Below are positions 24,077-29,998 of a DNA stretch of 64,000 nt, piece by piece (position 1 is the stretch's first letter; the number at the start of each line of letters is the position of its first letter). The position numbers and the translations under genes are program-made. This DNA is from a phage: the NCBI GenBank assembly GCA_033648345.1, contig GCA_033648345.1_4121.1. One strand, given 5' to 3'. The notes under the pieces are model-generated. The model worked only from the letters and a program-made list of their open reading frames with translations, did no database searches and had not been told where the DNA came from.

Positions 24077-25186
24077 TTATTTTGGTAAATCAATTTTAGT
24101 AAAGACTGCAACATCTGCACTTGCACCTGGAATGGCGTAATACGATCCAGTACTATATACATTCCCGTCTTTGGTTAATAATGATGTTAATCCGTCACTA
24201 AAAGCAACATCACTAATCTCACTAACTTCTACAGGTAATTGTAAATTAGCAGCACTATAGATAGCACCCGTTTGAGAATTGTTTAATCCCAAACCACGGT
24301 TTCCCCCAATACCTTTCTGATATGCACTAGTTAATATAATTTGCGTAGCCGTGCTTGTTGCCTCTGAATTTGTCATAAACAAAGGTGAATTATTAGGTAA
24401 AGTACTTACAGGAACTGCTTTGAATGTAGTTGAATCTGAACTAAGAAAGTTTGGAGTTGTACCACATGTGAAATATGATGTACCATTATAGTAATTGAGT
24501 GTATGTCCACCAATAGCTGCATCTATTACACCAGAACTACGCAGTCCCCAAATGTTAACTTGTGTTCTGTTCCCTGTGCCATGTAATCCACGGTCATTCC
24601 ACCCTGAACTATATAACTTATTATCTATGCTAATATACATACTATCATTAGGAGTAGACATAACTTTACGCACATTAGAAGCACATAGTGTTAATGTATA
24701 TATTGATGAAGAACCAATCCCCAATACACCACGGTATCCATTAGCTCCAGCACCATAGAGTACTGAACTTGAACTGAGTACAAATATTACACCACCATTG
24801 CATACAATATTAGCAATTTGATTCACAGGAATTGTATTTGTAAACCACTCCGTTCTATCAACTAATGTAGTACTGTAAGAAGTTGTTGTTGATGATGTGA
24901 ACCAATATGTTTCACCTGATGTCCATATCGTATTGTCATTTTTAATAATAACAAGTGTTCGTCCTCCAGTGAAAAAATTAGAAACATCTGCACTTACTAA
25001 TGTCCAAGAAGATACCGTGTTTTTATTACCATTTCCAGATTCACCACCTTGATTTCTGCCTATGTAATACAATTCATGTGAATCAGTCAATACGAATTGA
25101 CCTTGAGTAGAAGCACCAACTTTAATTATATTTTTAGGACCAGAGGTAATATTCCCATAATCAAATAGTCTTACAAAAGGTAACAT
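24077..25186 (-). CDS. RCC1-like beta-propeller repeat protein, array member 9 (369 aa)
   Basis: Start MLPFVRLFDYGN at 25186; coupled to member 8 (8-nt gap, AGGAGG SD within its 3' end). Confidence 0.75.
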   Translation of the reverse strand: MLPFVRLFDYGNITSGPKNIIKVGASTQGQFVLTDSHELYYIGRNQGGESGNGNKNTVSSWTLVSADVSNFFTGGRTLVIIKNDNTIWTSGETYWFTSSTTTSYSTTLVDRTEWFTNTIPVNQIANIVCNGGVIFVLSSSSVLYGAGANGYRGVLGIGSSSIYTLTLCASNVRKVMSTPNDSMYISIDNKLYSSGWNDRGLHGTGNRTQVNIWGLRSSGVIDAAIGGHTLNYYNGTSYFTCGTTPNFLSSDSTTFKAVPVSTLPNNSPLFMTNSEATSTATQIILTSAYQKGIGGNRGLGLNNSQTGAIYSAANLQLPVEVSEISDVAFSDGLTSLLTKDGNVYSTGSYYAIPGASADVAVFTKIDLPK

Positions 25187-25194
25187 AATTCCTC

Positions 25195-26397
25195 CTATTG
25201 TTGCCATAACTGCGTTGGCATTAATGTTAGTGTAGTAATACTATAAGTGCCATCAGGCAATCTACCACCATTACCATTCCAGCCACCACATGCATATAAT
25301 TTATAATCTTTAGTAATTATTATGGTTCTGCTCCAATCTTTAGATGCCATAAGAACATTGTCATAACCACCACTTATTGCATTAAGATTAAAAATATTCC
25401 AAGTCCTAACTAATGTATTAGTTCCATTACCTTCTTGACCGTATCCGTTAGCACCACTACTTCTAACATATGGTGCGTATTGTGCCATAGGTGCACCAAT
25501 TGATGCATTTCCCATATTACTTGGACAAATAAAAGTACTGTACTTACTTACATCAACCGTGACCGATGTGTTCCTAATTGGTGTTAGCTGATTTACCGAT
25601 GTAGTCGTACCATTACCAGCTTGTCCAGTACTGTTAGCCCCGCTATAATATACAGGCCCACCAGTAGTAAACCACCAAGTAACATCGTATGTAGTACTAA
25701 TATGTTCGACATCACTCATCACATATTTGTTCAAATATATCATAGAACTAGCACCACAACCACTTTCACCGAAGTTATCCTTACCACAAAACCATGCCTT
25801 TTTATTTGATTTAATATAGTGCGTTCCTTGTAATGAACATGCCATATGTGTAACTTCACCCATATTAGTCATAACTGTTAGTGTAGGTATGGAATTTTGA
25901 TTACCAGACCCACATTCACCATTGGTATTTCTTCCACACGCAATTACTCTACCATCGGTTAATAATATTCTAGTACTTTCACCTATATATACACTCTTGA
26001 TCATATTAGCCATAACACCAATTTTATTAAATGAAGCAGTAACATCAGTCCATGTTCTCAAATAACCATTAACAGGTGTTGCATCTCCATAATCAGAAAA
26101 TGCACCAACCGACCCAGTGTAGTATATTTTATTATCCAAATCAATCATCAATGAACCTTGAACACCAAGCCAAAAGGCTGCACATCGCGTTGCAAGTACT
26201 GTAAATGACGCAACTGCTGCTGAATTCCCAAGACCAAATTGATAAAAGTTATTACTACCATAACCATATAAAGTATTAGTTGGGCTATGTAGATACATAC
26301 AGTTTGTATAATGTTGTTGTAAAACATTTGAGAACTCTATTGGTTCTGGCCCTGGTGCAATATTCCCGAACTTAACCATCCTCGCAAAAGGTAACAT
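25195..26397 (-). CDS. RCC1-like beta-propeller repeat protein, array member 8 (400 aa)
   Basis: Starts MLPFARMVKFGN; close paralogue of member 5. Confidence 0.75.
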   Translation of the reverse strand: MLPFARMVKFGNIAPGPEPIEFSNVLQQHYTNCMYLHSPTNTLYGYGSNNFYQFGLGNSAAVASFTVLATRCAAFWLGVQGSLMIDLDNKIYYTGSVGAFSDYGDATPVNGYLRTWTDVTASFNKIGVMANMIKSVYIGESTRILLTDGRVIACGRNTNGECGSGNQNSIPTLTVMTNMGEVTHMACSLQGTHYIKSNKKAWFCGKDNFGESGCGASSMIYLNKYVMSDVEHISTTYDVTWWFTTGGPVYYSGANSTGQAGNGTTTSVNQLTPIRNTSVTVDVSKYSTFICPSNMGNASIGAPMAQYAPYVRSSGANGYGQEGNGTNTLVRTWNIFNLNAISGGYDNVLMASKDWSRTIIITKDYKLYACGGWNGNGGRLPDGTYSITTLTLMPTQLWQQ

Positions 26398-28795: not shown

Positions 28796-28804
28796 GATTT
28801 TCTC

Positions 28805-29998
28805 CTATGATTGCCATAACTGCGTTGGCATTAATGTTAATGTTTTAATTAAGTAAGTACCATCCGGTAATTTACTACCTGAACCGTTAAAGCCCCCACA
28901 TGCATATAATTTATAATCTTTAGTTATAATTATTGTTCTGGACCAGTCTTTGGATGCCATAAGAACATTGTCATATCCACCCTGTATCGCACTTAAAGAA
29001 AACGCCCCCCACGAAGTAATTATTGTTGTATTTCCCGTCCCTTCTTGACCATATGTATTGATGCCTGCACTCCTGACATATGATGGGTATTGAGCCATAG
29101 GTGCACCAATTGTTGAGTTACCCATATTACTAGGACACAGGAAACCATCACTAATATTCACTATAACCTGTGAATTCTGAACTGTAGTTAATTGGTTTGT
29201 AGTTGAAGTAGTACCATTCCCAGCTTGTCCAGAATTGTTTCTACCACTCCAGTACACCCTACCGGCAGTAAACCACCAGGTAACATCATAAGTAGTACTT
29301 ATATAATCGACGTTGGTTCGTATTAATTTATTAGTAAAAACGTATGAGCTAGTCCCACCACCACTTTCACCAAAGTTATCCTTACCACAAAACCATGCTT
29401 CTTTATTTGTTTTGAGATAGTGCGTACCCTGTAATGAACACGCCAATTGAGAAACTTCACCCATACCAGTAACAACTGTTAGTACTGGAATGGGATTTTG
29501 GTTACCTGTTCCACATTCGGCATTTGCATTTTTACCACAAACAACGACTCTTCCATCGTGTAGTAATATTCTAGTACTTTCACCTATATGTACACTCTTG
29601 ATTAAATTAGCGTGTACATTTATTTTGTTAAATGCGGCAGTAACATCAGTCCATGTTCTAAAATAACCATTAACTGGAGTTGCATCTCCATAATCGGGGA
29701 ATGCTACTGTATTCCCTGTGAAATATATTCTATTATCCAAGTCAATCATCAATGATCCATGAACGCCTAACCAAAAGGCTGCACAGTGCGTTGCCAGTAC
29801 TGTAAAAGTTGAAACTGCCGATCGATTCCCTAGACCTAATTGGCTCAAGTTATTACCACCATAACCGTATAGTGTATTCGTGGGCTTATGTAGATACATA
29901 GCATTAGTATAATGTTGCTGTAAAACATCAGTGAACTCAACTGGATCAGGAATAGGCAGTTTATTCCCGTACTTAACCATTCTAGCAAAAGGTAACAT
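28805..29998 (-). CDS. RCC1-like beta-propeller repeat protein, array member 5 (397 aa)
   Basis: Starts MLPFARMVKYGN; C-terminus …TLTLMPTQLWQS nearly identical to member 8. Confidence 0.75.
   Translation of the reverse strand: MLPFARMVKYGNKLPIPDPVEFTDVLQQHYTNAMYLHKPTNTLYGYGGNNLSQLGLGNRSAVSTFTVLATHCAAFWLGVHGSLMIDLDNRIYFTGNTVAFPDYGDATPVNGYFRTWTDVTAAFNKINVHANLIKSVHIGESTRILLHDGRVVVCGKNANAECGTGNQNPIPVLTVVTGMGEVSQLACSLQGTHYLKTNKEAWFCGKDNFGESGGGTSSYVFTNKLIRTNVDYISTTYDVTWWFTAGRVYWSGRNNSGQAGNGTTSTTNQLTTVQNSQVIVNISDGFLCPSNMGNSTIGAPMAQYPSYVRSAGINTYGQEGTGNTTIITSWGAFSLSAIQGGYDNVLMASKDWSRTIIITKDYKLYACGGFNGSGSKLPDGTYLIKTLTLMPTQLWQS

Follow-up and report, generated by a model that had tools for sequence, protein, structure and literature searches.

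The 64,000-nucleotide phage sequence analyzed here (GenBank assembly GCA_033648345.1, contig GCA_033648345.1_4121.1; hereafter the window) carries an array of 15 paralogous RCC1-like propeller genes, numbered m1 to m15 from high to low coordinates, and the present report concerns how its two most similar members, m5 and m8, came to lie in one genome. A search of INPHARED matched the window to the Asteriusvirus (PBECO4/121Q/phAPEC6 group) jumbo phages of Escherichia coli; WPEC3 was aligned at 99.8% identity (80% query coverage), and EC22.5-2 at 94.6% (100% query coverage). The array was delineated by using open reading frames (ORFs) and their translations, Pfam RCC1 and RLD matches, and the annotated arrays of relatives. 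The 15-gene array itself is already known: orthologous arrays are annotated in PBECO4, WPEC3, BF17, and others under the product name “regulator of chromosome condensation”, and the cassette exchange described below is another case of known phage genome plasticity. This GenBank name, like “DNA condensation protein”, is derived from the fold only. The true start of every member is ATG TTA CCT TTT (MLPF...), and the starts given by the ORF finder for m4, m7, m9, and m11 were too long, extending back through upstream regulatory sequence. The array and the members around m5 and m8 are as follows.

15869–34864, minus strand: RCC1-like array of 15 paralogous propeller genes, m1–m15.
28805–29998, minus strand: m5, 397 amino acids (aa), the putative 5-type allele of the m5/m8 family, 73% identical to m8, with orthologues in BF17 and fEgEco12.
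27614–28795, minus strand: m6, 393 aa, within a block common to both putative parental haplotypes, with a likely crossover at approximately 28300–28700.
26408–27538, minus strand: m7, 376 aa, true start at 27538, of a family that ends 10 nucleotides (nt) before the next gene.
25195–26397, minus strand: m8, 400 aa, the putative 8-type allele of the m5/m8 family, 100% identical to its WPEC3 orthologue and modelled as a seven-bladed RCC1-like propeller.
24077–25186, minus strand: m9, 369 aa, true start at 25186, of a family usually located 8–10 nt behind the upstream member.

According to the original prediction, m5 and m8 are close paralogues belonging to recently duplicated, coupled sub-modules of the array. 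The paralogy was borne out by a pairwise identity matrix of the 15 members, in which m5 and m8 exhibited 73% protein identity versus 19–32% for the remaining 104 pairs (median 25%). The C-termini quoted for them (...TKDYKLYACGG...LTLMPTQLWQS and ...LWQQ) were also found in this pair. What is repeated is, however, a single gene and not a sub-module. The DNA similarity between m5 and m8 (~76%) spans from about −4 to about 45 nt past the stop, ending inside the N-terminal codons common to all members. The two genes are non-adjacent and without common flanking sequence, and their neighbours are unrelated, with 23% protein identity for m6 versus m9 and again for m4 versus m7.

Comparison of the two coding sequences (CDSs) gave a synonymous divergence (dS) of 0.76 and a nonsynonymous divergence (dN) of 0.195, with 24% of the nucleotides being different; the resulting dN/dS of 0.26 indicates purifying rather than diversifying selection. 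Each copy has far closer counterparts in other phages. For m5, dS from its orthologues is 0.004–0.027, the DNA is 98.7–99.8% identical to the orthologues in BF17, fEgEco12, and seven metagenome or genome contigs, the protein is 98–99% identical to those of BF17 and fEgEco12, and the exact protein is present on 11 metagenome or genome contigs. For m8, dS is 0–0.094, the sequence is 100% identical to the WPEC3 copy, the DNA is 95.5–99.9% identical to eight others, and the protein is 93–99% identical to the orthologues of PBECO4, JNE01, and EC22.5-2. Between the 5-type and the 8-type, 72–73% identity was obtained in every cross-comparison. The view taken in the original prediction, namely a recent segmental duplication (m5–m6 to m8–m9 or the reverse) followed by fast, host-driven diversifying evolution, would suit the fact that m5 and m8 are the sole close pair in the array and that an 8–9 nt junction of similar sequence lies behind both, but it is already refuted by dS, at which the synonymous sites are near saturation, and by the existence elsewhere of a near-identical, single-copy orthologue of each copy. 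The purifying dN/dS and the limitation of the similarity to one CDS also speak against it, which leaves a recent and ongoing duplication very improbable. Gene conversion between m5 and m8 left no sign either, as only one of the five private m5 changes matches m8 and m8 is without private changes; this private-substitution test for ongoing conversion was negative.

The array genes of the window and of 20 related arrays were clustered at 60% identity, yielding approximately 35 families (w6, w9, A, E, and so on in the following). Homologues of m5 and m8 in the databases form a graded series of 96, 73, 72, 66, 57, 49, 47, and 45% identity, and phAPEC6 has a third type of the m5/m8 family that is about 75% identical. 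In INPHARED, all 26 phage records with a homologue contain one m5/m8-family copy each, and the two copies occur together in none of the 18 listed contexts of the exact m5 or m8 protein. Moreover, the 5-type occupies the slot of the 8-type, directly before w9, in fEgEco12 and in the array L010. We hence consider it probable that m5 and m8 represent two allelic lineages of a single cassette family, both of them old and maintained independently, in an array of virion-associated propeller genes that is shuffled by recombination. Family A (369 aa) is present twice per array with ~64% identity between the copies in L003, L005, and L010 (EC22.5-2, fEgEco12, and the GCA_902500055 contig, respectively), which makes a second case in which an array harbours two old, divergent forms of the same family.

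All 21 arrays are different mosaics of these families. When “=” marks a junction of at most 15 nt, the order is ..(w3 or w4) 5=6 7=9.. in BF17 and six contigs, ..6 7=8=9 w10.. in WPEC3 and four contigs, and w4 5=6 7=8=9 w10 in the window. Most relatives have exactly one m5/m8 lineage, which is located before w6 (BF17-like) or between w7 and w9 (WPEC3-like). The window is contiguous with BF17 over 26385–31273 (98.8%) and with WPEC3 over 23960–28806 (99.6%); these two segments overlap in m6–m7, where the single-nucleotide polymorphisms (SNPs) change from WPEC3-like to BF17-like at approximately 28300–28700. The architecture expected of the reciprocal product, with no copy, was found in vB_Ec-M-J (E w6 w7=w9). 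The two-copy state most likely arose when two array haplotypes that already existed underwent a crossover, as inferred from these alignments. Two related phages, one BF17-like and one WPEC3-like, would each have carried one m5/m8 lineage at its own array position, and a single homologous crossover in the nearly identical w6–w7 block would have placed both copies in one genome in the arrangement of the window. As the flanks of the copies are 98.8–99.6% identical to two different present-day phages, the joint arrangement is young although the genes are old. This youth also bears on an ancient duplication in situ, by which an ancestor had both copies and the window kept both while the other sampled phages lost one. 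Such a history would fit the dS of 0.76, and family A shows that old two-copy families exist; it would nevertheless need many independent reciprocal losses to leave the 26 phage records single-copy, and the 5-type in the slot of the 8-type before w9 is allele-like behaviour. We therefore judge an ancient duplication to be distinctly improbable.

Exchange of whole genes was observed throughout the array. Most members are preceded by a ~65-nt cassette consisting of a hairpin GCCAGTAC-NNN-GTACTGGC with a T-run, a promoter-like box TTAAATATAGTATAAT, and the Shine-Dalgarno sequence AAAGGAGG followed by ATG, and the first ~36 nt of the coding sequence (MLPF[VA]RM..YGN) are common to every member. 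When the window was compared with the 20 arrays, 44 of the 45 distinct homology breakpoints were located within −50 to +95 nt of the MLPF start, a zone that makes up 11.6% of the array (binomial P ~3e-40). This indicates that the genes are exchanged as whole units bounded by a conserved module. Against EJP2, nucleotide identity within one array ranged from 99.7% (w7) down to 79% (w9), and such uneven divergence is indicative of gene-by-gene exchange. The first 12 codons exhibit a synonymous-site conservation far beyond codon usage and beyond the needs of the protein: Gly11 is GGG in 14 of 15 members as compared with 12% usage in the gene bodies (P 2e-12), and CCT for Pro3 (P 1e-7) and TTA for Leu2 (P 7e-6) are used in 15 of 15. 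The genes accordingly move as whole units, for which the ~36-nt leader stretch and the ~65-nt cassette probably act as the homology for exchange.

Several points weigh against this interpretation of the locus. The ends of high-scoring segment pairs necessarily lie where homology stops, and what the breakpoints show is therefore whole-unit replacement, not where the strands were physically exchanged. The promoter-like box fits neither the −35/−10 pattern of sigma-70 nor the T4-type late TATAAATA that precedes the head and baseplate structural genes of phAPEC6. The position of the crossover rests on only ~8 informative SNPs. The exact arrangement of the window was present in no other record of INPHARED, the 34 exact-protein contigs, IMG/VR, the GTDB genomes, and E. 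coli RefSeq; the IMG/VR and GTDB genome searches gave no relatives at all, and E. coli RefSeq gave no match. Lastly, a chimeric assembly through the 2.4-kb w6–w7 block would look identical to a crossover. In that event, BF17-like and WPEC3-like reads would have been joined via m6–m7 and a real two-copy genome would not exist, which would account for the window being the sole sequence found with both copies and for its halves matching two different known haplotypes; the block differs by a handful of SNPs between the haplotypes, a situation in which assemblers mis-join. Recombination is, on the other hand, so pervasive among the 21 arrays that a real recombinant is expected a priori, and the remainder of the window is likewise mosaic relative to BF17 and WPEC3. 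An assembly artefact thus appears unlikely to us, and a crossover between two phages is retained as the preferred origin of the two-copy state.

The junctions between the members listed above are of two kinds, the cassette (with half of its hairpin missing before m5) and a short junction of 8–10 nt, and are given below.

29999–30061, minus strand: m4 to m5 cassette, 3′ half of the hairpin only, with an intact promoter-like motif at 30016–30031 (−3.7 kcal/mol, z −0.3).
28796–28804, minus strand: m5 to m6 junction, 9 nt, GAGAAAATC after the TAG stop (TAGGAGAAAATC-ATG), with the same 9 nt in BF17 and six metagenome contigs.
27539–27613, minus strand: m6 to m7 cassette, hairpin at 27582–27611 with a T-run, diverged promoter-like motif at 27560–27575, and Shine-Dalgarno sequence (−16.4 kcal/mol, z −5.1).
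26398–26407, minus strand: m7 to m8 junction, 10 nt, GGAGAGAAAT after the TAA stop, without hairpin.
25187–25194, minus strand: m8 to m9 junction, 8 nt (TAGGAGGAATT-ATG), AGGAGG overlapping the TAG stop, the same in PBECO4, WPEC3, EC22.5-2, fEgEco12, and JNE01.
24007–24076, minus strand: cassette after m9, hairpin GCCAGTAC-TCA-GTACTGGC with TTTTCTTTTT (24052–24070), box TTAAATATAGTATAAT (24024–24039), and AAAGGAGG (z −5.1).

The inverted repeat of the standard cassette, CCAGTAC-N3-GTACTGG, was detected at 9 sites versus 0.13 expected, and terminator-like sites at 23 versus 8.5 expected; the cassette hairpins have energies of −12 to −16 kcal/mol with z of approximately −5. The box TTAAATATAGTATAAT at 0–1 mismatch is confined to the array within the 64-kb window. 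It has a −10-like hexamer only, and sigma-70-type sites are not enriched (83 versus 103 expected). A MotA-box-like reading of TGGCTTTT was dropped owing to a too long spacing to the −10 element. In front of m5, the hairpin is half-deleted and unfolded, and m4 may therefore read through into the m5–m6 unit.

The close spacing that had been predicted after m5 and m8 was confirmed, with gaps of 9 nt and 8 nt, respectively, in which the Shine-Dalgarno sequence begins in the upstream TAG stop. The genes m7, m8, and m9 are closely spaced likewise (10 nt and 8 nt). The same claim failed for m12 and m13, which are 395 nt apart by the annotated ORFs; only a frameshifted continuation of m12, and not its 264-aa ORF, ends 10 nt before m13. 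At m5 to m6, m7 to m8, and m8 to m9, no significant hairpin or terminator (z +0.3, −1.5, and +0.7, respectively), no terminator-like site, and no copy of the array's promoter-like motif was found, while most other junctions have both hairpin and motif. Tabulation of junction length by family revealed that the short junction stays with the upstream gene and that the downstream partner varies between phages. The m5/m8 family ends 8–12 nt before w9, w6, or E in nearly all arrays, with EJP2 (87-nt gap) as the clear exception, and w7 always leaves a gap of 10 nt to its downstream neighbour, be it the m5/m8 family, w9, or P. Short junctions were also found after families I, K, and O in most of their arrays, after U, and after w11 in one contig. 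From the downstream side, w9 follows an 8–10 nt junction in the complete arrays examined except phAPEC6 (73-nt gap), and w6, the m5/m8 family, w14, w2, and w3 are preceded by the full cassette in some arrays and by a short junction in others. A few families (m5/m8, w7, I, K, and O) hence end without a terminator-promoter cassette and bring an 8–14 nt junction wherever they are moved, so that any gene landing downstream of such a family would be co-transcribed with it.

The operon-like co-expression proposed for specific pairs hence stands in part. Co-transcription of m5–m6 and of m7–m8–m9 is plausible from the junction sequences, in which terminator and promoter-like motifs are missing, but the pairs are neither specific nor fixed, as it is the upstream gene with which the short junction travels. 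A strong Shine-Dalgarno sequence of its own (AGGAG, AAGGAG, or AGGAGG) precedes every downstream gene, which makes independent initiation possible. Codons 2–4 of every member (UUA CCU UUU; for example at 25170–25220) are complementary to its own Shine-Dalgarno sequence AAAGGAGG. The predicted hairpin sequestering this site at m9 (−10.8 kcal/mol) was not significant versus shuffles; such a hairpin, if real, might tie initiation to a ribosome arriving from upstream. Overall, the original prediction was partly supported, as its observation is real except for the m12 to m13 coupling and for the duplication of gene pairs that it implied, while its interpretation is mostly wrong.

The proteins encoded by the array were examined by Pfam searches and structure modelling. 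The RCC1 repeat PF00415 was matched by m8 with 35.5 bits and by m5 with 25.9 bits, both above the cut-off of 21.7, and PF25390 was matched with E-values of 1e-20 to 1e-22, below its whole-domain cut-off of 150. Most members tested exhibited RCC1-repeat or RCC1-like-domain matches; m13 was without a Pfam match. An AF2 model of m8 (pLDDT 91.1, pTM 0.89) formed a seven-bladed propeller, for which the best PDB matches by Foldseek were UVR8, the HERC2 RLD, RPGR, and RCC1 (E 1e-25 to 1e-16, TM 0.65–0.75). The fold and the Pfam matches are hence like those of RCC1, UVR8, and HERC2 RLDs, with TM of ~0.75 to UVR8 and 0.68–0.71 to RCC1. Unlike in those eukaryotic proteins, from which the array members differ at 15–20% identity (15–18% for RCC1), nothing indicates Ran-GEF or chromatin activity.

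Residues 1–13 are the most conserved part of the family. Among 26 sequences with a mean column identity of 31%, M1, P3, F4, and N12 are invariant, and L2, R6, Y10, and G11 are conserved to at least 90%. The N-terminus MLPF[VA]R.. is present in all members of the window but m10, whose MLPF leader and body differ in frame. In the m8 model, residues 1–13 have pLDDT below 50 and are therefore predicted to be disordered, outside the propeller. The first array gene of BF17 (L004 23555–24460), vB_Ec-M-J (EcMJ_585), and L010 (5488–6393) encodes a 301-aa Kelch-repeat propeller, above the Pfam cut-offs, which carries the MLPFVRMFDYGN leader and is separated by 12 nt from the next member. The leader and junction module is therefore not restricted to a single fold.

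In the literature searched, the phAPEC6 paper (PMC7247149) alone discusses the array; it is not covered in the Sharanji paper, and the one on fEgEco12 notes only two condensation-regulator proteins strongly different from those of a close relative. The phAPEC6 paper reports eleven RCC1-like proteins at the same locus in the same genus, six of which were detected in virions by mass spectrometry, and takes the array as support for genome growth through tandem duplication. Junction cassettes, a common N-terminal leader, between-phage cassette shuffling, and allele-like families are not described in the passages of it that were searched. The proteins detected in virions, gp003, 5, 6, 7, 9, and 10, fall in families E, C, w11, w12, A, and H, and phAPEC6 and the window have families w9, m5/m8, w11, and w12 in common. 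Taken together with the conservation of the leader, the mass spectrometry of phAPEC6 virions suggests that the leader may be a common virion-docking or targeting peptide. Propellers displayed on the virion surface and propellers packaged and injected would both be compatible with this.

PeSL cassettes of T4-type phages (Arbiol et al. 2010, PMC2839356) are the closest described mechanism. Both systems have repeated composites, conserved over ~100 bp and flanking variable non-core genes, in which a stem-loop terminator, a promoter, and a Shine-Dalgarno sequence lead up to the ATG, and in both the breakpoints of insertions, deletions, and replacements between close relatives fall in the composites (PMC2839356). 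Recombination functions like those of T4-type phages, namely gp46/47-like subunits and EndoVII, are also annotated in phAPEC6. Unlike in PeSL, the promoter of the array cassette is not of the sigma-70 −35/−10 type, its stem is CCAGTAC/GTACTGG instead of G/C tracts, and its linker reaches ~36 nt into the coding sequence as a common N-terminal peptide. The array cassettes furthermore border a single family of paralogous, virion-associated propellers instead of unrelated ORFans. A second parallel is the internal-protein (IP) locus of T-even phages, which is hypervariable and encodes dissimilar virion products with a short conserved N-terminal capsid-targeting sequence. The divergent proteins of the array similarly have a short conserved leader outside the folded domain, present also on the Kelch fold, and their relatives are virion-associated in phAPEC6 (PMC7247149). 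They differ from the T-even IPs in being 40-kDa propellers, not small basic proteins, and in having no conserved L/I-x-E or Glu-containing motif after residue 12 across the members, although this T4 motif may not be the protease site of the present phage.

These likenesses led us to consider, as a tentative and rather doubtful extension, that the array is a dedicated cassette-exchange system in which a ~100-nt module (terminator, promoter, Shine-Dalgarno sequence, and 12-codon leader) is both the recombination linker and a universal virion docking/targeting peptide. If true, propeller genes of the RCC1 type and even of the Kelch type would be swappable between co-infecting jumbo phages, and every newly gained propeller would be loaded onto or into the virion via the leader. 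The host-binding or injected effector modules would then be present in a different combination in each phage, and the cassette-less families would form obligate co-transcribed trains.

Two members of the array have interrupted frames. In m10 (22827–24006), the MLPF leader and the first ~40 codons are out of frame with a 357-codon body owing to a +1 shift near ..TATATGCGTGGACGG.., which is identical in PBECO4, WPEC3, EC22.5-2, and JNE01 and is common to five phages. Programmed frameshifting, internal initiation, and a young pseudogene that recombination has spread are all conceivable for this shift; the m10 copies are only ~2% apart, which is too little to judge selection on this gene. In comparison with the intact 392-aa orthologue of vB_Ec-M-J, the gene m12 (20311–21500 together with the 395-nt gap) carries a frameshift, and WPEC3 is identical at this site; residues 261–391 remain encoded in the next frame. 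A similarly truncated protein of the w12 family, gp007 of phAPEC6 (269 aa), was detected in virions (PMC7247149), and the short form of m12 may therefore be functional. Interpretation of m12 and m10 as dead pseudogenes was hence not adopted, given the truncated gp007 in virions and the too high similarity of the m10 copies. Inside the array, a 216-aa ORF (phrog_34359) is located on the opposite strand between m14 and m15 (17071–17721, plus strand). It is conserved in BF17, fEgEco12, and WPEC3 and is weakly similar (E 0.001) to a 219-aa ORF at 36579–37238. A tandem-repeat finder gave trivial short repeats only in the RCC1 array.

The rest of the window contains further multigene runs. A second array, divergent from and adjoining the RCC1 array, extends over 34967–39973 (plus strand) with ~22–25 tandem tiny ORFs of 59–77 aa, which are weakly alike (median local score 35 versus 24 for shuffled sequences), often end in ..LxLI[FY]RY, and are annotated as hypothetical proteins in relatives. 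The 219-aa ORF at 36579–37238 interrupts this tiny-ORF array, and the GC skew there is negative despite the plus-strand genes. At 13394–15833 (plus strand), seven consecutive, weakly paralogous ORFs of 104–123 aa have abutting or overlapping stops and starts, a tighter coupling than anywhere in the RCC1 array; their long hydrophobic stretches indicate that they are likely membrane proteins. The region 40000–42000 is ORF-poor, with a sign change of the GC skew and short tandem repeats (CTGGGTGG ×4 at 41147–41180, and others), and may be a transcription or replication boundary. An alternative genetic code was rejected for the ORF-poor 35–64 kb, in which no stop reassignment restored long ORFs and many tiny genes were present instead. 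The tRNA and Rfam scans of the whole window found nothing.

The present results imply that one close pair in a tandem array is no sign of ongoing duplication, as such a pair can be old alleles united by recombination or by the assembler. The Asteriusvirus RCC1 locus evolves via whole-gene exchange at conserved joints, whereby the complement of virion-associated propellers differs from one sequenced relative to the next. Should these proteins attach to host surfaces or counteract host defences, the locus would be one source of the host-range differences among therapeutic jumbo coliphages, and the conserved leader and junction would then offer a ready handle for experimental module swapping.

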